NCBI GenBank assembly: GCA_913049555.1
Contig: CAJWYM010000004.1
Span: forward strand, 15,509-79,508
DNA length: 64,000 nt
Direction of reading: 5' to 3'
From: an uncultured Opitutia bacterium
GTDB taxonomy: Bacteria > Verrucomicrobiota > Verrucomicrobiia > Opitutales > CAJWYM01
In this document: one piece after another, positions 2 through 49,521 of the stretch
Layout of the letters: each line of letters starts with the position of its first letter
How positions within the stretch are numbered: position 1 is the stretch's first letter
Position numbers and translations under genes: made by a program
Notes under the pieces: generated by a model
What the model was told of the DNA's origin: nothing
The model's input: only the letters and a program-made list of their open reading frames with translations
Databases searched by the model: none

Positions 2-2800
2 GCAATTCAATTGGAAATGGAACAGGGCCCTCTCGGATTTCTAGATGGGATCCTTCGCAAAGCAGTAGAGCATAAAGAAATCGATATTGGATTAAAAAGT
101 ATTTACCGTATTATTCATGACCTCGAGCATATGGTGGAAGACATTCAGCATCCTTCTAAACAAAGAACCCTCAACTTGATAGAGCAACTGGAAGAACTTT
201 ATATAAAATCTCTGCATGGCAATCCTAATTGGAAAGAAGCCAAAACTCTTATTCAGGCGATTACAAGCTCAGGGATTGAGGGGCTCACGGGTTGGGGAAA
301 AGCTCCAGGAACAGTTATGGTGCATAAAGATAAAATGATCATTCCCGGGATTCACTATGGGAATATTTTTATAGCACCTCAACCTCCAAGAGGCTGGGAG
401 GTCAAGGAGGAGATTTTGCATGCCAATATGGCAATCCCACCCCACCATCAATACCTAGGTTTCTATCACTATATTAAGGATATATTTAAAGCCGATGCCA
501 TCATACATTTAGGAAGACATTCTACTTATGAATTTTTACCGCGACATCGAGCTGGGCTAACAGAAAAAGACTACCCAACGATCATTGCTGGGAATACTCC
601 TGGAATTTATCCTTATATCGTCGATGGAATCGGAGAAGGAATTCAAGCAAAAAGAAGAGGACTCGCAGTCATGATTAGTCATCTCACTCCCCCACTGCGG
701 AGCACACCTCTTTATGAAGATTTACTCGAGTTGCGTCAACTCGTGGAAAACTTTGAAGCCTCCAATCCAGAAGGGGAAACAGTCGCGCAAAGAAGAAGAT
801 TTGATGAAATAAAAAGACTCGTGATCCAGCTCAACCTTCAAGAAGAAATCGTAGCTGAGCTGATTAAAGAACATCACCTAGATTCAAAGACTCAGTTTGA
901 AGATTTAGACGATGATATGCTGATTCATGAGATCGGTCATTATCTTACGGACGTTCAAGAAAGATTTATGCCACTCGGATTGCATGTTTTTGGCAAAAAT
1001 TGGCAAGAAGACGCACTTGCATTGATGATAGAATCTATGGAGTCTGCACCAGGTTCAGATGCAGACAAAAATCTTAGAGCATCCCCAAAGGCAGAACTAG
1101 ACGCTTTCATAAATGGACTTCAAGGAGGGTTTATCCAACCTGGAAAAGGAAATGACCCGATAAGAACGGTAGAGTCCTTACCCACAGGAAGAAACTTTTA
1201 TGCATTGGACAGTAGTTTGTTACCCACAAAAATAGCCTGGGGAATAGGAGAAGATCTTGCAAAAAAAGCCAAATTACAAAAAAACGATCCGCAAGAAAGT
1301 GCAGCCATTGTGCTGTGGGCATCGGATGCAGTGAGAGATCATGGAGCTATGATTGCATTCGGTTTAGATTTACTTGGAGTGAAACCGAAGTGGAATCGAA
1401 GAGGGATTGTAAATGGCCTAGAAAGAATTCCACTGGATGAGGAGAGAACTTACAGAAAAGATGTCGTCTTCTCTATCTCCGGTTTATTCAGAGATTTGTA
1501 CGGACAACAAGTAAATCTTTTGGATCAAGCTGTACTTATGGCTCTTGATGCCTCCTCCTTAAAGATACAGAGCCAATATCCACATTTAAGTCATTGCCTA
1601 GATGAAGCCTTGAAGCAACTTAAAGACAAGAGAGACCCAGGCAATGAACCTTTGGACCAAAACTATATTGCCGCTCATTGGGTGCAGGAAATAGAAGCTC
1701 TAAAGAATCCAACCACCGAAAGAATAAAAAAATCGACCCTCCGGATTTTTGGAACACCTCCAGGAAGTTATGGCGCAGGAATCAATCGTCTTGTCGAACG
1801 ATCTGGTTCTTGGCAAAGTCGGGAAGATGTTTTCAATGTTTATTTAAGAGGCATGGGTCACGCATACGGCATTGAAAAAGAGGGCGATCCTGCCTACAAA
1901 AGTTTCGAAAGACGCTTGCATCAAATCGGTGAAACTTATCTCGGTAGATCCAGTCATCTATATGGATTGTTGGATAACAATGATGCTTTTGACTTTCAGG
2001 GAGGACTTAGTTTAGCGATTGAACAAATCCGAGGAAAAGTTCCAGAAAACTATGTAATTCGTCATGCGGATCCAAAGAATCTAAAGATTGATTCTCTACA
2101 AAGCTCCATCCTTCAAGAACTTAGAGGTCGCTTTTTAAACCCTGCTTGGCTTCAACCTTTGATGGGACATGATTATGCGGGTGCAAGAACCATGGGAAGT
2201 GAATTTCTGGAATACTTATGGGGTTGGCAGGTAACGAACCCTGAAATTATAAAAAGCTGGGTTTGGGATGAGGTGAACGCGGTCTACTTTGAAGATAAAC
2301 ATCAGATTCAATTAGATCAATTTTTAGAAACGGGCAACAATGTGCATGTAAAAATAAATATGGAAGCCATATTCCTAGTCGCAGCTCACAAAGAATTTTG
2401 GGATACTGATGAGGAAACACTTCATAATTTGGCTAATAAATTTGCAAGTAAAGTGATTGAGCACGGTCTTCCGGGGAGTGGTCACACAAGGCCAGATCAT
2501 CCAATGTTTGAATGGATCCTGCCTAAACTCGATCCAAAATTAAAACAAAACTTGATAGAAGTTTTGAAAAAAGCTCAGGCACCAATAGAAAAGCCTATCG
2601 ACCAAACCCTGACAACCGTGAGTGAAATTAAAATCAAAGAATCAAACAAACAGCCAGATAAAGAGTCAGAGGCAGTCAGTGATCAAGAAATCGAAACCCA
2701 GCCAGCAAAACTCTTTTTCAATCAACACCCCTTATGGATACTTGGAATTGCAACGATCCTAATTGGGATTGGTTATTACACCGGTCGATACAAAAAATAA
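2..2800 (+). CDS. cobN: CobN/Mg-chelatase-family large subunit, 5'-truncated by the window edge, with a C-terminal membrane anchor (HmuS-like layout)
   Basis: The frame is open back to base 2 with no upstream stop. Family-typical stretches are PPHHQYLGFYHYIKDIF, DGIGEGIQAKRRG, LPTGRNFYALD and PPGSYGAGI. The last ~25 aa are hydrophobic plus basic (LWILGIATILIGIGYYTGRYKK). Confidence 0.85.
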   Translation, partial: AIQLEMEQGPLGFLDGILRKAVEHKEIDIGLKSIYRIIHDLEHMVEDIQHPSKQRTLNLIEQLEELYIKSLHGNPNWKEAKTLIQAITSSGIEGLTGWGKAPGTVMVHKDKMIIPGIHYGNIFIAPQPPRGWEVKEEILHANMAIPPHHQYLGFYHYIKDIFKADAIIHLGRHSTYEFLPRHRAGLTEKDYPTIIAGNTPGIYPYIVDGIGEGIQAKRRGLAVMISHLTPPLRSTPLYEDLLELRQLVENFEASNPEGETVAQRRRFDEIKRLVIQLNLQEEIVAELIKEHHLDSKTQFEDLDDDMLIHEIGHYLTDVQERFMPLGLHVFGKNWQEDALALMIESMESAPGSDADKNLRASPKAELDAFINGLQGGFIQPGKGNDPIRTVESLPTGRNFYALDSSLLPTKIAWGIGEDLAKKAKLQKNDPQESAAIVLWASDAVRDHGAMIAFGLDLLGVKPKWNRRGIVNGLERIPLDEERTYRKDVVFSISGLFRDLYGQQVNLLDQAVLMALDASSLKIQSQYPHLSHCLDEALKQLKDKRDPGNEPLDQNYIAAHWVQEIEALKNPTTERIKKSTLRIFGTPPGSYGAGINRLVERSGSWQSREDVFNVYLRGMGHAYGIEKEGDPAYKSFERRLHQIGETYLGRSSHLYGLLDNNDAFDFQGGLSLAIEQIRGKVPENYVIRHADPKNLKIDSLQSSILQELRGRFLNPAWLQPLMGHDYAGARTMGSEFLEYLWGWQVTNPEIIKSWVWDEVNAVYFEDKHQIQLDQFLETGNNVHVKINMEAIFLVAAHKEFWDTDEETLHNLANKFASKVIEHGLPGSGHTRPDHPMFEWILPKLDPKLKQNLIEVLKKAQAPIEKPIDQTLTTVSEIKIKESNKQPDKESEAVSDQEIETQPAKLFFNQHPLWILGIATILIGIGYYTGRYKK

Positions 2801-2801
2801 A

Positions 2802-3230
2802 ATGCTGACAGAACTTTTACACCAAGCAGTTTCTTTACTTTTAAATCCAGTCATTTTACTTCTTCTGATGATGGCAGTCATTGCGATTCTTGAAATCGGA
2901 ATTGCCCTGGGTGAGCGATTGGGAGGAATGCAAGAAATGGCAAAAAGCAAGTCCTTTCAATCTGTAGAAAAAATCGCTAAAAAAAGAATTGAACGAGCAG
3001 ACCTGATCACTCGGATTGCACCTATTTTAGGCTTGATGGGAACGCTCATTCCTCTAGGACCCGGCCTCGCTGAATTGAGTGTAGGAAGTTTTGCAGGACT
3101 AGCAGCCTCTATTAGCATAGCATTTGATACCACAGTTTTAGGATTATTCTCTGGAATGATCTGCTTTATCATCGGTCGTAAAAGAAGGCGATGGTACGAC
3201 CAACTATTAGTCCAAATTGAAGGAAAATAA
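2802..3230 (+). CDS. Small MotA/TolQ/ExbB-family proton-channel-like membrane protein
   Basis: ATG at 2802 lies 1 nt after the cobN stop; the ORF-track start at 2763 is a TTG extension inside cobN. There are three hydrophobic helices. Signature-like segments are APILGLMGTLIPLGPGL and AFDTTVLGLFSGMICFIIG. Confidence 0.7.
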   Translation: MLTELLHQAVSLLLNPVILLLLMMAVIAILEIGIALGERLGGMQEMAKSKSFQSVEKIAKKRIERADLITRIAPILGLMGTLIPLGPGLAELSVGSFAGLAASISIAFDTTVLGLFSGMICFIIGRKRRRWYDQLLVQIEGK

Positions 3231-3238
3231 TAATAATA

Positions 3239-3538
3239 ATGAAATCACGAAATTGGAAATCAGACCGATTTATAGAGGAATCTGAAGATCCGCTTGAATC
3301 TATGGCCAATCTGGTAGATATCATGCTTGTATTCATCTGTGGGTTAGTAGCCGCTTTAGCAGCCTCTAGCGAAAACTTCATACAGCAATACAATACAAAA
3401 GAAATTCTCCAAGAGGAAAAAGAACTTCCTCAAATACCAGAGGGGATTGGCAATCAGGGTGGAAATGGATATCAAAAAGTGGGGCAAGTCTATAAAGACC
3501 CAGAAACTGGAAAACTAATCTTAGTGGGCTCTGAGTAA
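3239..3538 (+). CDS. DUF2149-like single-pass membrane protein (ExbD/TolR-like anchor)
   Basis: 99 aa with an acidic N-terminus, one TM (LVDIMLVFICGLVAALAA) and a soluble tail. It follows the MotA-like gene after a TAA-TAA-TAA-TAA run. The family assignment is from memory of DUF2149 neighbourhoods. Confidence 0.55.
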   Translation: MKSRNWKSDRFIEESEDPLESMANLVDIMLVFICGLVAALAASSENFIQQYNTKEILQEEKELPQIPEGIGNQGGNGYQKVGQVYKDPETGKLILVGSE

Positions 3539-3583: not shown

Positions 3584-4177
3584 ATGTTAGAAAGTAGAAA
3601 AAAGAAAGTCGTTGAAAAAAGAATCGCCTCTTGTGAAGGAAATGAAAAAGGGCTTCATATGGTGCACACCGGAAATGGGAAGGGAAAGACAAGTGCTGCC
3701 ATGAATATGGTCTATCGCCATCTAGCTCATAATATGCCAGCGGTGGTTGTTCAATTTGTAAAGTGCGAGGATGAATATCCAGATGGAGATCGTCGACTCC
3801 TGATGAAACTTTCTGAGCAAGGATTCCCAGTCACTATTTTAACGATGGGAACTGGTTTTTCATGGAACTCAACAGACAAAAATAAAGACATTGAGGCTGC
3901 TGAAAATGCCTTTAAAAAAGCTGTAGAATATTTAAATGATGAGACCACTAGCCTTGTCCTCTTGGACGAAGTTCATATCGCAATCTCACTCGCTTATCTC
4001 GATGAAGGTAGAGTTCTCGAAGCTATTAAAAACAAACCCGACTTCAAGCACGTGGTGACGACAGGTCGTAGAGCCCCTGAGAGCTTTATTGAAAATGCAG
4101 ATCTGGTTACTGAAATGAAACAAATCAAGCATCCAATGTCCAAAAAGATTCCAGCCCAAATAGGCATCGAATATTAA
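3584..4177 (+). CDS. cobO: Cob(I)yrinic acid a,c-diamide / cob(I)alamin adenosyltransferase (CobO/BtuR type)
   Basis: HTGNGKGKTSAA P-loop followed by VVQFVK. Size (197 aa) and the basic N-terminal extension match BtuR/CobO. Confidence 0.9.
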   Translation: MLESRKKKVVEKRIASCEGNEKGLHMVHTGNGKGKTSAAMNMVYRHLAHNMPAVVVQFVKCEDEYPDGDRRLLMKLSEQGFPVTILTMGTGFSWNSTDKNKDIEAAENAFKKAVEYLNDETTSLVLLDEVHIAISLAYLDEGRVLEAIKNKPDFKHVVTTGRRAPESFIENADLVTEMKQIKHPMSKKIPAQIGIEY

Positions 4178-4308: not shown

Positions 4309-4920
4309 ATGATAGAAAATTTAGAATCTGTTTTTTTAGACCTTGGTAGAGTTCTGTTTCATTTAAACTACCGCGAAACCTTCGAAAAAATCTTTTCCAA
4401 GAGTCGACTCGACCAAGATAAACTCAAAAGAGTACTGACTTACAATGGCTTGAATATTGAGTTTGAAACTGGAAAGATTACAGAGGAAGCGTTCTTTCTC
4501 AAAATGATTCATCAAGCAGAGTTTACAGGCTCGGACAAGGAGTTCATCCAGCCTTGGATTCAGATCCTTTCACCCATTAAAAAAAACCTTGAATTTGCTC
4601 AAGAGTTGGCCCAAAAATACAAGATTGGAATCATCTCTAACACCAATGAGGCCCACCTACGATTTATGGAGAAAACAGGAGGACTCGCTGCTTTTAGTGA
4701 ACATAGAATTTATTCTTGTCGTGTTGGCTATATGAAACCGAGGAAAGAAATTTACAAAGCAGCCCTATCCCAAAGCAATGCAATTCCTCAAAGATCGATT
4801 TTTTTAGACGATAGAGAGGAGAATGTTGAAACGGCTCAGTCTCTAGGATTTCATGCCTATCTATTTCCCAAAGGAGAAGACTTACGAAAATTTTGGAACG
4901 AAAAGATCTTACATGTCTAA
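4309..4920 (+). CDS. HAD-IA family phosphatase (YihX-like motifs)
   Basis: Motif I is FLDLGRVLF, motif II is IISNTN, and motifs III/IV are KPRKEIY and FLDDREENV. ATG at 4309; the track start at 4303 is TTG. Its stop overlaps the cobU start by 8 nt (ATGTCTAA). Confidence 0.8.
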   Translation: MIENLESVFLDLGRVLFHLNYRETFEKIFSKSRLDQDKLKRVLTYNGLNIEFETGKITEEAFFLKMIHQAEFTGSDKEFIQPWIQILSPIKKNLEFAQELAQKYKIGIISNTNEAHLRFMEKTGGLAAFSEHRIYSCRVGYMKPRKEIYKAALSQSNAIPQRSIFLDDREENVETAQSLGFHAYLFPKGEDLRKFWNEKILHV

Positions 4921-5443
4921 TAAGATTCATCTTGTTCTTGGAGGGAGTCGAAGTGGCAAAAGCAGCTACGCTGAGAAATTAGCGGAAGAACAGGAGCGCC
5001 CCGTTGTCTATGTAGCCACATGTCGAACTGAAGGACTGGATGAAGAAATGCAAACAAGGGTGCAAGCGCACCAAATTGGAAGACCCCAAGATTGGATCAC
5101 ACTGGAAAATCAATTTCACTTTCCTGACATTGTCCAAAGATACAAAGACTCTTGTATACTGATAGATTGTTTGACCTTGTGGATAGGCAATGCCATGGAA
5201 ACCTTGCAAGATGAAGCGGAGATCAACAAACAATTGGAAGATGCATGCAAATCAATCCAATCCCTCGACGTTCACGTCTTGATTGTGAGCAATGAGCTGG
5301 GAATGGGATTGATTCCTGAGAGTCGCATAGGTCGTCAATTCAAAGACTTATGTGGTCGAGCCAATCAAATGATTGCTGCTCACGCAGATAAAGTGACTTT
5401 TATGATCGCTGGCATTCCATGGCAGATAAAACCTGAGAGATGA
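4913..5443 (+). CDS. cobU: Adenosylcobinamide kinase / adenosylcobinamide-phosphate guanylyltransferase
   Basis: LVLGGSRSGKSSYAE P-loop near the N-terminus and VSNELGMGLIPE. About 176 aa from the ATG at 4913. Confidence 0.9.
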   Translation: MSNKIHLVLGGSRSGKSSYAEKLAEEQERPVVYVATCRTEGLDEEMQTRVQAHQIGRPQDWITLENQFHFPDIVQRYKDSCILIDCLTLWIGNAMETLQDEAEINKQLEDACKSIQSLDVHVLIVSNELGMGLIPESRIGRQFKDLCGRANQMIAAHADKVTFMIAGIPWQIKPER

Positions 5444-6537
5444 ATAATCCTCCGCGTGTCAATCAAACCCACCATGGAGGAAAGGTATACGAAGCTGCCA
5501 AAAAACTAAAATGCCTGCCCTCTGAAATCTTAGATTTCAGTGCAAATCTCAATCATTATACACCGGAAATTAAAGAAAAGGATTGGCTAAAATTCAAAGA
5601 TTCTATTTTTCAATATCCCCCTGAAGAAAACGAACTCAAAGAACTTTTAGCTCATTTGTATCAAACGGATCCAAATTTTATAATTCCTACTGTTGGTGCA
5701 ATCCAAGCTCTACACTTGGCCTGTTCTTTCTTTAAAGGCAAGAGAATGCTCTGGCTGGAACCTGGCTTCTCTGAATACTCAAGAATCGCAAGCATTGAAG
5801 GCCTAGAGCCAGTACCTATTTCGGTAGAGTTGTCTTTATCCGCAGAGGAAAAATTTCAAAAACTCGTAAAACATTCCAAAGAGGGAGACGTGATCCTGCT
5901 TTGCATCCCACAAAACCCAAGTGGCGAGCAACTTCAATGGAGTGCTTTGATACCAGTCGTTGAAGAATTTTCCGATCGAAATATTTCTTGGATATTGGAT
6001 GAATCTTTTATTGAAATGACCCAATCCAACTATCAAGGCTCCCTTGAATTTCTAGATCAATTTCCAAACCTATTCTCCTGTAGATCTTTGACCAAAAACT
6101 GGAAAATTCCAGGTTTGAGATTTGGTTTCCTATCGACTTCTAATGCAGAAATGCTTGAAAGATCCGAAAAGAACAGGAAACAATGGTCCATCTCGGGGGT
6201 AACTAATAGCTGGGCTCAAACCTTCCTAAATAAAAATCTACTCCAAAAAAACCAAACAGCGATCGCTCGTTTATTGCTGGAAACACAAAGCTTAATAAAA
6301 ACTCTCGAGCAGAACTTTTACTGGAAAATATACCCCACAGATACAAGTTTCTTTCTTTGTGAATTACCGAACCCTCTGGATGCCTTGGATTTATCACAGC
6401 AATTGTTACAAAAAAAGATACTCCTCAGAACTTACCCAGGGGATCCATCTCTGAAAGATAGGTCTCATCTTAGAATAGGCTCCAGAACAAAAGAACAAAA
6501 TCTCCTCCTAATTGAAGCTTTGAGAGAAACAATCTAG
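5440..6537 (+). CDS. cobD: Threonine-phosphate decarboxylase-like class I/II aminotransferase (CobD; CobC in some nomenclatures)
   Basis: ATGA overlap with cobU. PLP-fold motifs are PQNPSGEQ and RSLTKNWKIPGLRFGF. It sits in a B12 nucleotide-loop context. Confidence 0.8.
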   Translation: MNNPPRVNQTHHGGKVYEAAKKLKCLPSEILDFSANLNHYTPEIKEKDWLKFKDSIFQYPPEENELKELLAHLYQTDPNFIIPTVGAIQALHLACSFFKGKRMLWLEPGFSEYSRIASIEGLEPVPISVELSLSAEEKFQKLVKHSKEGDVILLCIPQNPSGEQLQWSALIPVVEEFSDRNISWILDESFIEMTQSNYQGSLEFLDQFPNLFSCRSLTKNWKIPGLRFGFLSTSNAEMLERSEKNRKQWSISGVTNSWAQTFLNKNLLQKNQTAIARLLLETQSLIKTLEQNFYWKIYPTDTSFFLCELPNPLDALDLSQQLLQKKILLRTYPGDPSLKDRSHLRIGSRTKEQNLLLIEALRETI

Positions 6538-6696: not shown

Positions 6697-7461
6697 TTAA
6701 AGAGCCAGAGAACAAAGAATCAGAACAAAGCACTCGACAGTTAAAATACTTGCACCTAAGCAATCCCCAGTAATTCCATTAAAATTTCTTTTAAAGTAGA
6801 GATAAAAGACTCCCACCACAAATGCAGACGATACAGAAAGCAATAAGGCATGCCAAAAACTCAATAACAAAGAGGCCAAGAGAGTTAACAAAACCCAATG
6901 AAGAGAACACCTGAATGTAGTAGGAGCTTCTAATGAATTGCCGATCCCTGTTCCTTTTTCACCAGACCTTTCCAAGAAAGCCAAAGCTCTCATCAAGGGC
7001 AAAGCCGCAGTTCTGCTAAAAGCGACGGATAAAAAGAGGGATACGAAAAGAAGCTTTGGATAAACGGCCAAAGCGCTTATAGAGCCAAAGCGAATCAAAG
7101 AACTCAGAACAATTGCCAAAACGCCATAGGTTCCCAAGCGAGAATCCCTCATAATTTCCAGCTTTTTCTCTAATTCAAATCGACCTGCACTGTCTGCCAA
7201 ATCAGCTAGACCATCTTCATGGATGCACCCTGTGAGCAGAACCTGAAATCCAAGAACTAGGGCAGCAAGGAGTAGCGGTGGAATCCAAAAAGAGAGAACC
7301 AGCCCGAAAGAACCTGCTAGAAGTCCAAGGAAAAGGCCGACTGGAGTAAACCATCGCGGAATTTTACTCCAGCAATCTGGGTACTTTTCACATAAATCAT
7401 AAGGAATTGGAATCCTTGATAAAAAACTCAGAGAAGCTAAAAATGTTGCAATAAGCTTCAC
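6697..7461 (-). CDS. cobS: Adenosylcobinamide-GDP ribazoletransferase (cobalamin 5'-phosphate synthase)
   Basis: Polytopic membrane protein with an HEDGLADLADS motif. GTG start forms a GTGA overlap with the cobT stop. Confidence 0.9.
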   Translation of the reverse strand: MKLIATFLASLSFLSRIPIPYDLCEKYPDCWSKIPRWFTPVGLFLGLLAGSFGLVLSFWIPPLLLAALVLGFQVLLTGCIHEDGLADLADSAGRFELEKKLEIMRDSRLGTYGVLAIVLSSLIRFGSISALAVYPKLLFVSLFLSVAFSRTAALPLMRALAFLERSGEKGTGIGNSLEAPTTFRCSLHWVLLTLLASLLLSFWHALLLSVSSAFVVGVFYLYFKRNFNGITGDCLGASILTVECFVLILCSLAL

Positions 7462-8486
7462 TGACTGACGCCTGCACTTTCAAAAGTTGCCATATTTTGG
7501 TAACAACTCAAGGCCCCTTGAATCACCCCCATAGCCATTGCAGCTCCGGAGCCCTCTCCTAGATGCATTTTAAAATCCAATAGAGGTTTTAGGCTATAGT
7601 ACTTCAAGAGTTTTAGATGAGCCGGCTCTTTCGAACAGTGCCCAGATTTGCAAAAGGCCAAACTACTTGGTTGGATTTCGAAAGCAATCGAGGCAGCAAC
7701 CGTCGCAATCAGACCATCCAAAACAATAGGGATTGAAGAAGCACTGGCTCTTAAAACAGCAGCACACATCGAGACAATTTCTCTCCCTCCGAGTCTGCGA
7801 ATTCGTTCCCAAGGGTCGTTTAAGTATTTGTGGTGAAGCTCTAAAGCTTGTTTGATTCTTTTTGCTTTGTGTTGCATCTGATTTGCGTTGATACCCGTTC
7901 CTCGTCCCACTAAAGACTCTGGATCTTCTTGAAGCAAAGCAGCACACAAAGCAGTCGCACTGGTCGTATTGCCAATTCCCATTTCCCCAATTGCATACAA
8001 ACTCGAATTTGATGGCACCGCCTCCCATCCTCTTTTAAAAGCACGGACAAATTCTTCATGATTCATTGCAGCTGCCTCAGCAAAGTTTTGAGTGGGACTT
8101 TCGATTCCACAATCAACTGCTTGAAAGTGAATTCCATAAGTAGAACAAATGGCGTTGATTGCAGCGCCCCCAGCTATGAAATTGGCAAACATTTGGGCGT
8201 TCACTTCAGAAGGATAGGCACTCACACCATCCTTAGCAATGCCATGACTACCCGCAAAAACCGTAAGATGGAAAAGCTTTTTATCCAATGAATCGGAACC
8301 CTTACAACGAGCCATCCAACTTACTAAATCTTCCAATTCGCCCAAACTACCAATCGGCTTTGTTTTTTGATCCCATTTGGCTGAGACTGCATCATCAATT
8401 GATCTTTCCTTCATGGAGATCGATTCAATCTCTTGGATCATCGAGGCAGGCAATAACAACTTTATACTTTCGGGTGCTTCAACCAT
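7458..8486 (-). CDS. cobT: Nicotinate-nucleotide--dimethylbenzimidazole phosphoribosyltransferase
   Basis: GEMGIGNTTSATAL, VFAGSHGIA and HLGEGSGAAMAMG are typical of CobT. Confidence 0.92.
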   Translation of the reverse strand: MVEAPESIKLLLPASMIQEIESISMKERSIDDAVSAKWDQKTKPIGSLGELEDLVSWMARCKGSDSLDKKLFHLTVFAGSHGIAKDGVSAYPSEVNAQMFANFIAGGAAINAICSTYGIHFQAVDCGIESPTQNFAEAAAMNHEEFVRAFKRGWEAVPSNSSLYAIGEMGIGNTTSATALCAALLQEDPESLVGRGTGINANQMQHKAKRIKQALELHHKYLNDPWERIRRLGGREIVSMCAAVLRASASSIPIVLDGLIATVAASIAFEIQPSSLAFCKSGHCSKEPAHLKLLKYYSLKPLLDFKMHLGEGSGAAMAMGVIQGALSCYQNMATFESAGVSQ

Positions 8487-43221: not shown

Positions 43222-44574
43222 TTAATTCCGGTCGATTTCCCCTAAGATTTGCCACTGCGTATCATCAAAAAACCACAAGGCAGTTTCCAGTTCGACAATC
43301 TCTTTTTCAAGAACCTGACTAGTCATCCACCATTTCTCAAAGAGTTGCATTCGCTCTTGAAAAACACTCATGGTAGTGGGAACGCTTAAGCTATTTAAAA
43401 TTTGCCATCTCACTTGTTGCTTCTTCAATTGAGTACGAACTGTATTCAATTGTTCATTCACTTGACTCAACTGAAGCAACCAAGAAACTATTTTCTTTTC
43501 TAAAACCTTGTCTTGAACTTCTCTTTCTCGAATAAATTCTTGTTTTTGCCGCTTGATCTTTCCCCTTGTGTCTAATTGCCATATCAAATCCGCTCCTACC
43601 CTTATATTGTCAGTATTCCAAAGACTTTTGGACTGTCCTGAAAATCTAAATAAAGAGGGGGTTGAAACCGATAAATTTAAATCCGGCCAATATTGTAAAT
43701 CAATTTGGCGAGATCTTAGACGTGCACCTTCAAGTTCAATCGCCATCAGTTTAATCTGATCTTGTGCAATGTGCTCAATCAATTCTAAATTGAGCCCGCC
43801 CTGATCCACATAAGGCAATTTAATAAGTTGAGTGGGGCGTATACGCCAAATTTTACTAGAATCACTCAAGTGATCATTCAACCGCAATTGGAGTTTGCGA
43901 CCTTTTTCCTCAAAGACTTTTTCTGAACTGTTATCTTTGTAGAATAAGATGGCAGCGAGGTCTTCTACGGGCAAACGTTTTTTAAAACTGTCTTTCCACA
44001 GTGAAAATTCAATGCTTTTCTCGAGCATCTCTTGTTCACGAAAAATTTTATACAATTCAATGACCGCTTTTCGGATTTTGAGTGTTTTGGAGGTATTGGC
44101 TCGAACGAGACTCAATCGGCTCGTATACAATCTTGAGGGAATCTGTTGTAGATAAGCAAAATTAAAAAAACTATCAATTCCATAGGTCCAACCATTTGCA
44201 AATACAGAAGCAGATCCACTTATGAACTCGGAATAACCTCCTTTTAAGGTAAGTTTAGGAATAAGATCTCGGTATACAAATTTAAGATCATTTTCTGCTC
44301 TGAATAAATCCATTTCAGAAGTAGTCAGATCAATGTTGCTTTCTAAAAGGATTTCTAAAGCTTCTGTAAAAGAAACAAATTCTTCATCACTGTTGTCTAA
44401 CTTATCTAAATTTGATCTCCACAGCTCTCTTAGATTTACCTCATTCGTCTCTAAATTTTCTTCAACACTTTTACAAGAAACTGATAAAAACATTGTATAC
44501 AAACAAAAACAAAGGCTGCCAAAAATCGACAGCCTTTGTTTCTTGAAAAAAATATCTAGAAATTTACTCAACAA
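43222..44574 (-). CDS. TolC-like outer-membrane factor family protein (possible lipoprotein)
   Basis: 450 aa with the signal ending FLSVSC. Two-fold helical/strand repeat pattern with a typical LTEALEILLESNIDL...AENDL opening. Its start overlaps the secretin stop by 11 nt. Confidence 0.55.
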   Translation of the reverse strand: MLSKFLDIFFKKQRLSIFGSLCFCLYTMFLSVSCKSVEENLETNEVNLRELWRSNLDKLDNSDEEFVSFTEALEILLESNIDLTTSEMDLFRAENDLKFVYRDLIPKLTLKGGYSEFISGSASVFANGWTYGIDSFFNFAYLQQIPSRLYTSRLSLVRANTSKTLKIRKAVIELYKIFREQEMLEKSIEFSLWKDSFKKRLPVEDLAAILFYKDNSSEKVFEEKGRKLQLRLNDHLSDSSKIWRIRPTQLIKLPYVDQGGLNLELIEHIAQDQIKLMAIELEGARLRSRQIDLQYWPDLNLSVSTPSLFRFSGQSKSLWNTDNIRVGADLIWQLDTRGKIKRQKQEFIREREVQDKVLEKKIVSWLLQLSQVNEQLNTVRTQLKKQQVRWQILNSLSVPTTMSVFQERMQLFEKWWMTSQVLEKEIVELETALWFFDDTQWQILGEIDRN

Positions 44575-47428: not shown

Positions 47429-48400
47429 TTAATTCAGTAGAAAGGGATCTTGAGTGGAATCCTCAGGACTGTCCTCAGATACTTCTTCTAGGATGTTTCC
47501 CTCTAAATCGTAAAGAACCTCTTTTTCCAAAAGCATTTCAATACTCGTTCCGTCCTCTTTATTTGTTTTGGAAATCAGAACTTTTTTATCATCAAAGTAG
47601 ACTTCGGTTAGCTTGTATGTAAAATTTTCTTCAAAGTTAAAAACTTTGAAAGTCTTAAAGGGAGATGAACTGGAATCAAAACGATTCAATTGAATAATCT
47701 CATTTACAGCTGGATCGAGTTGAGAAGTGATCGTAATGTTTAAAGTTCCAGTGTACACTTTCTCCTCTCCGATTTGATTGGTGAGGGTAAACTCTTTACC
47801 AGATTCCAAATCGCGAACTCTAAGCCTGGCAACTCGAACCAACCGCAACCCTTTTTCATTTATGATCTCCTCTTTTTTTTCAGTAAAAGAAAGGAACTTT
47901 ATTTTTGCTTCTCGATTCGTTTCACCTATTCTACCAGATACTACATCGGTAGAATCTTCCGTATTAATAATGGAAATCTTTGCCTTCTCCACCGTTCCAG
48001 AAAAGCTGCTATACTGATACCTAAATTTCTCCCTGCTAATATCGGTAAATACAACACCAAAGGGAGGGATTACTTTCGGTGGTGGAGGAAGGACAAGAAC
48101 TCCAGGTTCCTTAGCAATCAATTCCCCATCATCATCAATATAAATTTTGGGAGGTGTAAACACAGAATATTTCCAAAATTCGTCGGGAATGTCCCTTTGC
48201 ATTTTTGGCTCCTTCCACTCCTCAGGATCAGCAATATTTTGATCTACAACCACATTTTCATAATCGTTCATCTGAGCGAAACTAGGCAAATCCAAATCAA
48301 GAGCTTTCAAACCATTGTATTGGGTTAGGGTCAAAAAACCTGTTATGAGCAGAGTTATCAGAACTGCTAATAAAATAAGTTTGTCGTATAATTTTTCCAT
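47429..48400 (-). CDS. Bitopic hypothetical protein of the pilus-like cluster (position of a PilP analogue)
   Basis: N-terminal TM (LILLAVLITLLITGFLTL), a Pro-rich segment (VLVLPPPPKVIPPFG), a beta-rich body and an acidic tail. Confidence 0.7.
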   Translation of the reverse strand: MEKLYDKLILLAVLITLLITGFLTLTQYNGLKALDLDLPSFAQMNDYENVVVDQNIADPEEWKEPKMQRDIPDEFWKYSVFTPPKIYIDDDGELIAKEPGVLVLPPPPKVIPPFGVVFTDISREKFRYQYSSFSGTVEKAKISIINTEDSTDVVSGRIGETNREAKIKFLSFTEKKEEIINEKGLRLVRVARLRVRDLESGKEFTLTNQIGEEKVYTGTLNITITSQLDPAVNEIIQLNRFDSSSSPFKTFKVFNFEENFTYKLTEVYFDDKKVLISKTNKEDGTSIEMLLEKEVLYDLEGNILEEVSEDSPEDSTQDPFLLN

Positions 48401-48412
48401 AACAAATTCTAA

Positions 48413-49471
48413 TTACTCAAACTCACTTTGTTGATCAAGAGTTTCATTGCTACCCAACATTTCTTCAATATCGTAAATATACTCTATATACTCAACCACG
48501 ACTGTAAAAGAAGAAGCATCTTCTTTAATCAGAGGAGGTCGAGTGGGCATGGTGACTTCTTTAACATCCTCTTCGTTTTCTTTTTCCTCTTGTGGGCTTA
48601 CCCCAAATAAAGCGGCGAAAGCACTGCTGGGTTCGGTTGTATCTACTTGTCTTCGAACTTCATTTGACCTGAAAGCTGATTCTTCAATTTCTTTTTTAGA
48701 GGAACTCTTGACTCGGATGTCTTGAACAATCAAAGGATAATAACTGTCATCGGAAACTCGGTTTAAAAACTTCCTAAGAGAGGAAGTGTGACCATAAAAT
48801 GACAATTCAAAGGCCAATGTGTCCACGACTCCTTCTTTTCTTACCGAAAGTAATGGGTTGAGTTTGTACCTATCTTCGGCAGTTGAAGTTCTCTCCTGAC
48901 CATCTTGATCTTGATATTCTAAATATTCTCTTTTGATATTTGTAATTCCATCCGGACCAGATTCAATCAAAGCTTTCGATAAATGTTCTAACAACTGCCT
49001 TTGCTTGTCGATAATGGAAACATAGGGTTTCATCTCCTCAGTAAAGGTGGTTCCTTCAAAATACTGGGCAAAACCAAAGCCAAATTTTTCAGGTATCTTG
49101 ATCTTAAATTGTTCCTTATTTTCATCAGATCTGCAAAGATTCGTCAAAATTTTAATATGGTCTCGAACCGATCCAAGAAATCGATTGTCATCGGTTTCAG
49201 TTAAAATTGGGTTTCGAGCCTCTACGAGTCGAGTCTTTCTATCATAGACTTGAGCTAGATGAGTTATGTTTTTTTCAGAGTCTAATTCTACTTGCTCGGT
49301 AAGAGAGGGTTGACTTTCGAGAAGTTCTCCAAGGGCTCTTTGATATCGGTTGATATTTTTTGTAATTTTATTTTCTTCAGAATGGGCAAGAAAAAGCATC
49401 ACAATCCCCACTAAAAATAGAGCTATTAAAACTCCAATTGATACAAAAAATGTGATATTTTTTTTAACCAT
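48413..49471 (-). CDS. Amuc_1100-like / PilO-like bitopic protein
   Basis: N-terminal TM (ITFFVSIGVLIALFLVGIVMLFL). Blocks FGFGFAQY, LLEHLSKALIESG, LAFELSFYGHTSSLRKFLNRV...PLIVQDIRVKS and FTVVVEYIEYIY parallel the Akkermansia Amuc_1100 sequence as I recall it. ATG at 49471. Confidence 0.6.
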   Translation of the reverse strand: MVKKNITFFVSIGVLIALFLVGIVMLFLAHSEENKITKNINRYQRALGELLESQPSLTEQVELDSEKNITHLAQVYDRKTRLVEARNPILTETDDNRFLGSVRDHIKILTNLCRSDENKEQFKIKIPEKFGFGFAQYFEGTTFTEEMKPYVSIIDKQRQLLEHLSKALIESGPDGITNIKREYLEYQDQDGQERTSTAEDRYKLNPLLSVRKEGVVDTLAFELSFYGHTSSLRKFLNRVSDDSYYPLIVQDIRVKSSSKKEIEESAFRSNEVRRQVDTTEPSSAFAALFGVSPQEEKENEEDVKEVTMPTRPPLIKEDASSFTVVVEYIEYIYDIEEMLGSNETLDQQSEFE

Positions 49472-49521
49472 AACACTCAAACTCTAAAAACAATTAAAAT
49501 ACTCAATAATATTCAATCAAA

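Follow-up and report, generated by a model that had tools for sequence, protein, structure and literature searches.

Near the left edge of a 64,000-nucleotide stretch of DNA from an uncultured Opitutia bacterium of the Verrucomicrobiota (the window, meaning here the whole of that stretch), a gene of the CobN/ChlH superfamily is followed by two small membrane-protein genes, one of the MotA/TolQ/ExbB family and one of the DUF2149 family. We read this trio as a candidate (de)chelatase-like periplasmic module of the B12 pathway that would be coupled, through a membrane anchor, to a minimal proton-driven stator, and regard the chances for and against that reading as evenly balanced. Its direct support comes from the family memberships of the three proteins, the conserved linkage of their genes, the B12 context and regulation of the loci, the retention of the catalytic core of the superfamily, and the co-variation of the C-terminal anchor with the MotA-like/DUF2149 pair. 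From these observations we infer a physical complex, its use of the proton-motive force, its chemistry and its substrate.

In the mechanism that we propose, a scavenged tetrapyrrole of the B12 pathway would enter by the TonB-dependent receptor of the operon, ahead of BtuFCD-type import, and the CobN-like enzyme would act on it in the periplasm. Metal-macrocycle chemistry is the most likely activity, because the His/Glu core of CobN, ChlH and HmuS is kept. Neither ATP nor AAA+ partners have access to the periplasm. The ExbB-like and DUF2149 proteins would form a proton-conducting, stator-like complex, and proton flow would be turned into conformational work, exerted by way of the C-terminal helix on the CobN-like enzyme; the pair would in this way stand in for the ChlI/ChlD or CobS/CobT subunits of the cytoplasmic enzymes.

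The architecture of the trio is already known, from the HmuS-HmuU-HmuV core, from the B12-regulated BtuS class and from PA1923-PA1925. Added here are the colinearity of the three genes (76/76 loci), the link to cobalamin riboswitches (~70-80% of loci), the co-variation of anchor and pair, and the failure of HmuS- and CobN-specific tests in a protein that keeps the catalytic His and Glu.

The three proteins and their predicted membrane topology

The CobN-like frame is open at the left edge of the window from base 2 and closes with a TAA stop at 2798-2800, its C-terminal residues being ...LWILGIATILIGIGYYTGRYKK*. The remaining 502 N-terminal residues lie to the left of the window. The full-length protein of 1434 residues (P0001), reported as 100% identical to the fragment, is carried by two Tara Oceans contigs (L001 and L002), which lengthen the locus by 10 kb leftward; residue numbers given here follow the full-length protein. 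Around position 92-94 the window gives ...DGILRKAV..., P0001 gives ...DGIIRKAV... around residue 533, and within the convergent cobS gene there is an offset of one nucleotide between the window and the Tara contig; the strain of the window is thus very close to the Tara strain and not identical to it.

By Pfam the fragment is a member of the superfamily, matching CobN-Mg_chel (PF02514) with E=1.6e-194 and 649 bits (cut-off 24.5). On the CobN equivalog model TIGR02257 the full-length protein reaches 542 bits, with a cut-off of 822, and it falls under the cut-offs of all nine NCBIfam CobN and BchH models (TIGR02257, NF0046xx); it therefore belongs to a separate clade of the superfamily. Full-length scores against solved structures (363 bits for ChlH, 351 for HmuS, 333 and 300 for CobN) place it about equally far from all three. 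The closest relatives, at ~55% identity, are from Verrucomicrobiota and include a Limisphaerales genome. Among 69 clade sequences from several phyla, 309 of the 1434 positions are at least 97% identical, H675, E679 and E714 among them, and the clade is, to judge from this conservation, under purifying selection.

H675, E679 and E714 lie in two invariant motifs (Table 1). By positional mapping, H675 and E714 match His-538 and Glu-577 of HmuS, and the set of three maps on E625/E660 of ChlH. In HmuS, the exchange H538A abolishes activity (PMC12583661). The third invariant motif, D-N-N-D, places Asn1162/Asp1163 at the position of Asp-1208/His-1209 of HmuS, and bears a closer resemblance to D-S-D-D, found in a solved CobN, than to the Asp-His of HmuS. 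Other features of HmuS are missing as well. The Met-rich insertion of its domain IV is absent (at most 4 Met per 60 residues; Met 1.7% overall), its haem ligand His-254 is aligned with Asp302, and no similarity to its head domain was detectable, residues 1-298 being unaligned, so that a counterpart of Met-79 has no placement. The C-terminal third of the protein gives 119 bits to HmuS versus ~100 to CobN or ChlH.

An earlier reading of the window from its sequence alone, the first-pass annotation, had described a CobN-family frame ending in a hydrophobic helix and a basic stop-transfer, then a three-helix MotA/ExbB-like protein of 142 residues one nucleotide past its stop, and then a single-helix protein of 99 residues likened to DUF2149 and ExbD. 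As statements about the sequence, these descriptions are all correct. Hydropathy and charge agree with the first of them, since the C-terminal hydrophobic helix of 15-17 residues is followed by RYKK. The helix is present in 68 of the 69 clade members, with a median of 4 Lys/Arg behind it. At the other end, the full-length protein begins with MPLKRS and continues into a hydrophobic stretch; a hydrophobic N-terminal segment is found in 60/69 members, for which start codons were chosen crudely. With its basic tail, and with Lys/Arg ahead of the N-terminal hydrophobic stretch, the protein would by the positive-inside rule have its bulk in the periplasm, and we predict that it is exported and that the C-terminal helix, at least, anchors it to the inner membrane on the periplasmic side. 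Terminal helices and a periplasmic bulk, as predicted here, are also the topology that has been reported for HmuS and BtuS.

The small protein encoded from the ATG at 2802, one nucleotide past the CobN-like stop, matches Pfam MotA_ExbB (PF01618) with E=1e-10 and 41.9 bits (cut-off 22.9), a score measured on a longer TTG-initiated open reading frame (ORF) that contains the 142-codon gene. The positive-inside rule gives it an N-out topology with three transmembrane helices (TM1 to TM3), as in ExbB and TolQ, and its cytoplasmic parts are short (a loop of ~36 and a tail of ~18 residues). The signatures P-x-x-G-L-x-G-T in TM2 and T-x-x-G-L in TM3 align with E. coli ExbB and TolQ, and an Asp in TM3 is invariant across the clade. 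A single-sequence AlphaFold2 model was all helix and, at a predicted local distance difference test (pLDDT) of 61, too poor to use.

After a gap of eight bases follows the DUF2149 gene, whose product matches Pfam PF09919 with E=5e-9 and 36.8 bits (cut-off 27.1). The family is small: a search of 1.84 billion proteins gave 409 cluster representatives at E<=1e-3. The predicted topology is N-in, with one transmembrane helix that bears Asp27 (codon 3317-3319), a linker and a C-terminal hairpin. Asp27 lies in the segment NLVDIMLVF and is invariant in 88 DUF2149 sequences; the C-terminal motif G-x-V-Y-x-D-P-x-T-G-K-L is likewise invariant, in the close clade and in distant members alike. Of the combined DUF2149/ExbD label, the first half stands. 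The DUF2149 profile matched no PDB chain of ExbD, TolR or MotB at E up to 10, and its best PDB matches were non-significant Cren7-like hairpins (E ~0.4). An hhalign comparison with E. coli ExbD and TolR covered 13-17 helix residues only, at a probability of at most 2.4%; in it Asp27 is set on the transmembrane Asp of the ExbD segment FIDVMLV, which we take to be Asp25 of E. coli ExbD, and on that of the TolR segment LLDVLLV. In the AlphaFold2 model built from the 88 sequences (mean pLDDT 65), residues 20-43 form a helix and residues 83-96 a single beta-hairpin, joined by a linker of low confidence; the model contains no folded periplasmic domain, which at this pLDDT is weak evidence. The likeness to ExbD is confined to the helix, so that the protein is ExbD-like in the membrane and stands outside the ExbD/TolR family.

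Compared with the 5:2 motors ExbB-ExbD-TonB, TolQ-TolR-TolA and MotA-MotB, the trio shares the PF01618 family, the three-helix topology and the TM2/TM3 signatures of the MotA-like protein, the single N-in helix of the DUF2149 protein with an Asp at the position of the transmembrane Asp of ExbD/TolR, and the co-encoding of a third anchored protein with a large periplasmic part, as for TonB and TolA. It differs in that the MotA-like protein lacks the large cytoplasmic domain and C-terminal extension of ExbB (142 residues versus 244 in E. coli), in that the DUF2149 protein is unmatched to ExbD, TolR and MotB beyond its helix and has no folded periplasmic domain in its model, and in that the third protein is homologous to enzymes rather than being an elongated linker.

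Linkage, regulation and distribution of the trio

A survey with the DUF2149 alignment against one genome per GTDB species returned 369 relatives, of which the best 80 loci were analysed. The MotA-like gene stands directly upstream of DUF2149 in all 80, and the order CobN-like, MotA-like, DUF2149 is colinear in 76 of the 76 loci with enough upstream DNA, the other 4 ending at a contig edge. Chance adjacency of the three genes was rejected on this ground, and the linkage of the two small membrane genes to the CobN-like gene is conserved. These loci come from Gamma- and Alphaproteobacteria, Verrucomicrobiota, Nitrospinota, Nitrospirales, Thermodesulfobacteriota and Binatia. Spacers within the trio are mostly a few bases or overlaps, with start codons assigned approximately, which suggests translational coupling. 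The first-pass annotation had taken the module as fused, here, onto a nucleotide-loop operon; rather than a single such event, it is widespread and mostly under B12-riboswitch control, known to comparative genomics by the name BtuS and found in P. aeruginosa as PA1922-PA1925.

In the reverse direction, metagenomes were scanned with the CobN-like alignment and loci with enough downstream DNA were counted. The C-terminal helix and the pair occurred together in 42 loci and were both missing from 26; 2 loci had the helix only and none the pair only (Fisher p=3e-17). A TonB-dependent receptor was found within 5 kb in 11/46 pair-positive loci, as against 22/25 pair-negative ones. The loci without helix belong to a sister lineage (L122-L164, for example L164:3028-10972) whose proteins, ~1400 residues long and 45-46% identical, have a signal-like N-terminus and no C-terminal helix. 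They end instead in a conserved Cys-bearing tail (...SARKGGS..NDDC..SC), the MotA/DUF2149 pair is absent, and the genes run receptor, CobN-like, BtuF, BtuC, BtuD. Other contrasts point in the same direction, in that canonical CobN and ChlH have neither helix nor pair and HmuS has both. The pair appears to follow the C-terminal membrane anchor and not the TonB-dependent receptor, a pattern that moderately favours coupling.

Regulation of the relatives was assessed in two ways. By Rfam, a cobalamin riboswitch lies right upstream of the CobN-like gene or its operon in 7 of the 11 related loci tested (Azotobacter vinelandii DJ, Thiohalophilus, Marinobacterium, Pseudomonas taeanensis, Zhongshania, Oleispira and Methylophaga); the negatives are the present locus and one metagenome-assembled genome each of Verrucomicrobiota, Thermodesulfobacteriota and Binatia. 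With an nhmmer profile seeded with eight Rfam-confirmed riboswitches, a match on the same strand and at most 900 nucleotides upstream was obtained in 50/71 loci, 44 of them at E<1e-8, and ~7 more of the 71 have a match ahead of the upstream receptor or the first gene of the operon. Altogether, about 70-80% of DUF2149-anchored trios stand behind a cobalamin riboswitch, and the helix-less lineage is riboswitch-linked in 18/25 loci.

Gene neighbourhoods in the 80 genome loci tell of the same pathway. Genes of the cob or btu type lie within 10 kb in ~30 of them and a receptor in ~16; the only recurrent families among the two nearest genes on each side are TonB-dependent receptors, CobO, CobB/CobQ-type amidotransferases, CobU and CobT. 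The gene most often found directly downstream of the trio is cobO, which in 10 loci is one of the first two genes on that side. Neither Mg-chelatase AAA+ nor vWA nor TonB is among the 25 most frequent neighbour families. In A. vinelandii DJ (L004) the trio stands alone under riboswitch control, and this strain has no corrin-ring pathway (PMC4465626), so that providing cobalt for de novo synthesis is not the general role. Two side observations concern individual relatives. At L004:8447-9610 a gene for a CMAS-type methyltransferase is divergent from the trio, which brings to mind PA1921, the methyltransferase encoded beside PA1922-PA1925. A flavodoxin gene (L006:4075-4710) stands just upstream of a riboswitch-controlled trio in at least one genome of Marinobacterium, and an ORF at L011:2900-3580 is 79% identical to it; this gene is notable in view of HmuS, which depends on a reductant and for which a flavodoxin has been put forward as electron donor.

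The MotA_ExbB and DUF2149 pair is found beyond the clade as well. Distant DUF2149 proteins occur in Coriobacteriia, Gordonibacter included, and in Clostridiales Family XIII, bacteria which we take to be monoderm. In five such loci (L088, L089, L090, L171 and L172; DUF2149 gene at position ~9001 in L088-L090 and L172, and at 5117 in L171) a larger MotA_ExbB protein of 220-274 residues and a DUF2149 protein are encoded side by side. The pair adjoins giant surface proteins of 1100-2800 residues (Big_2, SLH, LRR, fn3) and also Peripla_BP_2/FecCD/ABC importers, and no CobN-like gene is present at these Coriobacteriia and Clostridiales loci. This arrangement hints that cells which have no outer membrane possess an energising module of the TonB kind. 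For methanogens, a table entry gives DUF2149 as 'linked to TolQ' (PMC9425974). Since the pair occurs in presumed monoderms and in methanogens, it is not tied to an outer-membrane receptor; it is a general module that accompanies large extracytoplasmic proteins.

The corrinoid locus around the trio

On the Tara contig L001 the genes upstream run cobQ, TonB-dependent receptor, BtuF-like, FecCD-type permease, ABC ATPase, cbiZ, cbiB and the CobN-like gene, and downstream of the trio the window continues with cobO, which begins at 3584, 45 nucleotides beyond the DUF2149 stop as first described, and with the further cob genes listed in Table 1; cobS and cobT are convergent on the string formed by the trio, cobO, cobU and cobD. 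The cobyric acid synthase gene cobQ scores above its NCBIfam cut-off. For the receptor, which sits 7.7 kb upstream in the same gene string, the best NCBIfam matches are B12 and haem receptors, all below threshold. Taken whole, the locus is an operon for the uptake and salvage of corrinoids. The two genes right upstream of the CobN-like one are cbiZ and cbiB (L001:7863-9951); CbiZ, an adenosylcobinamide amidohydrolase, is at 378 residues above the usual length and has a weak match to the bifunctional CbiS. The position of these two genes next to the CobN-like gene points to cobamide remodelling instead of simple uptake.

By Pfam, no AAA+/vWA chelatase subunit was found among 37 ORFs of the window, which include all those of compatible size, and none in the 10 kb upstream on the Tara contig; other parts of the genome may yet encode such partners. 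The lack of such a partner, first remarked for the window, thus extends to its left flank, which the first-pass annotation had asked about and which held the missing N-terminus of the CobN-like protein and the TonB-dependent receptor. Corrin-ring synthesis genes are not visible in the scanned ORFs of the window or in the same 10 kb.

Table 1. Features of the trio and of the adjoining genes, in window coordinates.
Feature	Position	Strand	Basis or remark
CobN/ChlH-superfamily gene, BtuS/HmuS-like membrane-anchored type	2..2800	+	C-terminal 932 residues plus stop; Pfam CobN-Mg_chel
Catalytic-core motif H675-S-T-Y-E679	518-532	+	Invariant in 69 clade members
Catalytic-core motif G-I-G-E714-G	E714 codon 635-637	+	Invariant in 69 clade members
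D1160-N-N-D1163 motif	1973..1984	+	Invariant in clade; phmmer alignments to PDB chains 9d26, 9uk9
Predicted C-terminal transmembrane helix LWILGIATILIGIGY and basic tail YTGRYKK (stop-transfer, cytoplasmic side)	2732..2797	+	Hydropathy, charge
MotA/TolQ/ExbB-family gene, 142 residues, minimal	2802..3230	+	Pfam MotA_ExbB
Predicted transmembrane helices of the MotA-like protein	2850-2906, 3015-3071, 3117-3173	+	Hydropathy
DUF2149 gene, 99 residues	3239..3538	+	Pfam DUF2149
cobO, ATP:corrinoid adenosyltransferase	3584..4177	+	Pfam and NCBIfam above cut-off
HAD-family hydrolase	4309..4920	+	Pfam; NCBIfam gives generic HAD-IA matches only
cobU	4913..5443	+	Pfam; gene calls on L001
cobD-type aminotransferase	5440..6537	+	Pfam; gene calls on L001
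cobS, nucleotide-loop assembly	6697..7461	-	Pfam CobS on L001; window ORF
cobT, nucleotide-loop assembly	7458..8486	-	Pfam DBI_PRT on L001; window ORF

The HAD-IA hydrolase between cobO and cobU occupies a spot at which one might expect a CobC-type alpha-ribazole-phosphate phosphatase, of which it may be a non-orthologous replacement. The remaining genes of the window are diderm housekeeping genes (secretin, PilM, Lnt, FlgK). Three ORFs of 322-449 residues that adjoin the secretin/PilM genes (47429-49480 and 43222-44571) have no Pfam match at E<=1e-5 and are probably divergent pilus or secretion components.

Candidate functions and alternative explanations

The parallel with hmuSTUV, drawn in the first-pass annotation, was well chosen. 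The genes hmuS, hmuU and hmuV encode a CobN-like, a MotA/TolQ/ExbB and a DUF2149 protein (PMC11681262), and HmuS of Bacteroides thetaiotaomicron is a proven haem dechelatase, membrane-bound and facing the periplasm (PDB 9D26; PMC12583661). Shared with the present locus are a CobN-like protein of ~1450 residues with hydrophobic termini and a periplasm-facing bulk, the MotA/TolQ/ExbB and DUF2149 genes behind it, a receptor in the operon, the conserved catalytic His/Glu (H538/E577 in HmuS) and the absence of an AAA+ partner. In contrast to hmuYRSTUV, the locus has no equivalents of hmuY and hmuT (10 kb upstream checked), its context is B12 and not iron or haem, and its receptor is parted from the CobN-like gene by the btuFCD-like genes, cbiZ and cbiB.

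The name BtuS has been used for CobN-like proteins of B12-regulated btu loci, for which metalloporphyrin salvage was predicted (Rodionov 2003, as cited in PMC6460266), and the label 'CobN-like chelatase BtuS' appears in a proteomics paper (PMC10846266). [quoted passage not shown] The only experiments, unlike the present context, concern haem-iron use, to which BtuS1 from a btu-type operon of B. fragilis contributes (PMC6460266). Operons of the hmu type with cobalamin riboswitches have been noted in the same species (PMC10100974). A third system, PA1922-PA1925 of P. aeruginosa (receptor, CobN-like, 'ExbD'/MotA-ExbB-like, DUF2149), likened here by description, matches the trio in gene order and in all three families. 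It is regulated by Zur, that is by zinc starvation, its receptor is always adjacent, and the rise in cellular cobalt of a znuA mutant has been linked to it. With CobNST and ChlHID/BchHID the trio has in common the superfamily and domain of its large protein and the catalytic His/Glu, and with CobNST also the place of a cobaltochelatase in the pathway, beside cobO and ahead of the later steps; those enzymes are soluble, cytoplasmic and driven by ATP through AAA+/vWA partners, whereas the present protein is predicted to be exported and anchored and has no such neighbours.

What the CobN-like protein does is a question for which several answers may be graded. That a proton-driven stator replaces the AAA+ motor and drives periplasmic cobalt insertion, or metal exchange, on a scavenged corrinoid is a proposal that we put forward tentatively. 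Considered for the protein by itself, forward insertion of cobalt or metal exchange on a scavenged corrinoid is likewise possible, if anything a shade more doubtful. Non-catalytic capture or hand-off of a corrinoid and removal of a metal from a tetrapyrrole are both rather unlikely roles, cobalt-ion uptake is more unlikely again, and some other function takes up the rest. Insertion is favoured over removal because the locus has every step that follows cobaltochelatase (cobO, cobQ, cbiB/cobD, cobU, cobS and cobT), because the D-x-x-D motif is CobN-like, and because cobalt, to our knowledge, is not removable from an intact corrin without destruction of the ring. Of the dechelation of a corrinoid or other metallotetrapyrrole suggested initially, the B12/corrinoid setting stands; haem is an unlikely substrate, since the haem features specific to HmuS are missing, and removal of cobalt from a corrin is chemically doubtful.

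Several points weigh against a proton-driven module. In the absence of both its terminal helices and HmuU/V, soluble HmuS turns haem into protoporphyrin IX in vitro when NADH is supplied (PMC12583661), so that the motor is not needed for haem dechelation. The helix-less lineage is conserved, B12-regulated and free of the pair, which implies that the enzyme can work without a motor; the same lineage forms one tight clade, and the correlation of anchor and pair therefore amounts to approximately one evolutionary event. The C-terminal helix of the clade lacks a conserved polar residue of the TonB-motif type, and neither Rfam nor the nhmmer profile detected a cobalamin riboswitch in the window or the 10 kb upstream. 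We know of no pool of metal-free corrinoids in seawater. Finally, a riboswitch, a receptor, TonB and then the trio form a single string in Thiohalophilus, and Geobacter lovleyi has cobN-exbB-exbD-tonB amid cobalamin genes (PMC3403914); both arrangements fit a conventional ExbB/ExbD pair. For the proton-channel-energised (de)chelatase of the first-pass annotation, the tracking of the C-terminal anchor by the pair speaks in favour, and the activity of HmuS without HmuU/V against; the coupling is a hypothesis to which the comparative tests lend moderate support.

That conventional explanation is the alternative that survives best, and we regard it as possible, on the doubtful side. It holds that a dedicated pair of the ExbB/ExbD type, made up of the MotA-like and DUF2149 proteins, energises the BtuB-like receptor together with a TonB from elsewhere, and that the CobN-like protein works independently in the periplasm, as an enzyme or as a binding protein, and draws no energy from the pair. 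The literature leans this way, as PA1924 is so described and HmuU/HmuV are presumed to power the receptor HmuR; one paper of 2026 states that HmuU/HmuV 'may affect' HmuS activity (PMC13227078). The receptor 7.7 kb upstream in the present string, the TonB genes in the Thiohalophilus and G. lovleyi strings and the activity of soluble HmuS would all be expected under it. Less readily accommodated are the scarcity of receptors (~16/80 genome loci within 10 kb) and of TonB, which is almost never adjacent, the many trios that stand alone right behind their own riboswitch, and the absence of the pair from the very lineage that is nearly always beside a receptor (22/25). The folded periplasmic domain by which ExbD contacts TonB is, moreover, lacking from the DUF2149 model, and the pair also occurs in bacteria taken as monoderm.

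Acquisition of metal ions is an unlikely explanation. Here the CobN-like domain would capture cobalt, or strip it, from a chelate that has been imported (in the Pseudomonas paralogue under Zur control the metal would be zinc), and the ion would pass through a MotA-like/DUF2149 channel or the adjoining ABC importer, as a form of cobalt uptake under B12-riboswitch control. Such riboswitches commonly control cobalt importers, and the BtuF-like system CbtJKL of S. meliloti imports cobalt (PMC7689651); the Zur regulation of PA1922-PA1925 and its link to raised cobalt in the znuA mutant would fit, as would the invariant acidic residue that the DUF2149 helix and the MotA-like TM3 each carry. The present locus, however, is one of corrinoid salvage and remodelling with cbiZ and without visible ring-synthesis genes, A. 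vinelandii DJ has a riboswitch-controlled trio yet no corrin-ring pathway (PMC4465626), and proteins of the MotA/ExbB family are known as proton or sodium channels, not as importers of transition metals.

An orthologue of HmuS, that is a haem dechelatase taking iron from haem, is very improbable and was rejected, as the HmuS-specific features are missing. The overall architecture is equal, from the terminal helices to the MotA/ExbB and DUF2149 genes behind, the C-terminal third is slightly nearer to HmuS, and B. fragilis BtuS1 of a btu-type operon aids haem-iron use; against this stand the missing Met-rich insertion, Asp302 in place of His-254 and Asn/Asp in place of Asp-1208/His-1209, the dissimilar head domain, the absence of hmuY and hmuT, the B12 rather than iron context and regulation in relatives, and full-length scores that are alike for ChlH, HmuS and CobN. 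A canonical cytoplasmic CobN that serves the aerobic B12 pathway, with the genes for CobS/CobT located elsewhere and the small genes as unrelated passengers, is hardly credible and was rejected on curated thresholds and predicted topology: NCBI names relatives 'cobaltochelatase subunit CobN', cobO of the neighbouring pathway step adjoins and the D-x-x-D motif is CobN-like, but the protein misses the TIGR02257 cut-off and those of every other CobN model, its signal-like N-terminus and C-terminal helix with basic tail predict export, the trio is colinear throughout, and no AAA+/vWA gene was found in the window, in the 10 kb upstream or among the frequent neighbours in the 80 loci.

The CobN-like clade described here has a broad distribution among marine and soil Proteobacteria, Verrucomicrobiota, Nitrospinota and others, and B12 itself is usually the switch that controls it. 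Even on a conservative view, the name 'cobaltochelatase subunit CobN' is misleading for its members, as it would wrongly imply de novo aerobic B12 synthesis in genome-based predictions. If a stator does drive a chelatase-like protein, the trio would represent a new way to energise periplasmic chemistry and the first enzyme of tetrapyrrole metal chemistry to be powered by the proton-motive force. It would extend the family of 5:2 motors past motility, TonB/Tol and gliding, and would provide a function for HmuU/HmuV, for PA1924/PA1925 and for the DUF2149 family, its presumed-monoderm and archaeal relatives included. Should the substrate be a metal-free or mis-metallated corrinoid, the module would open a new salvage route in the B12 economy of cobalt-poor waters.

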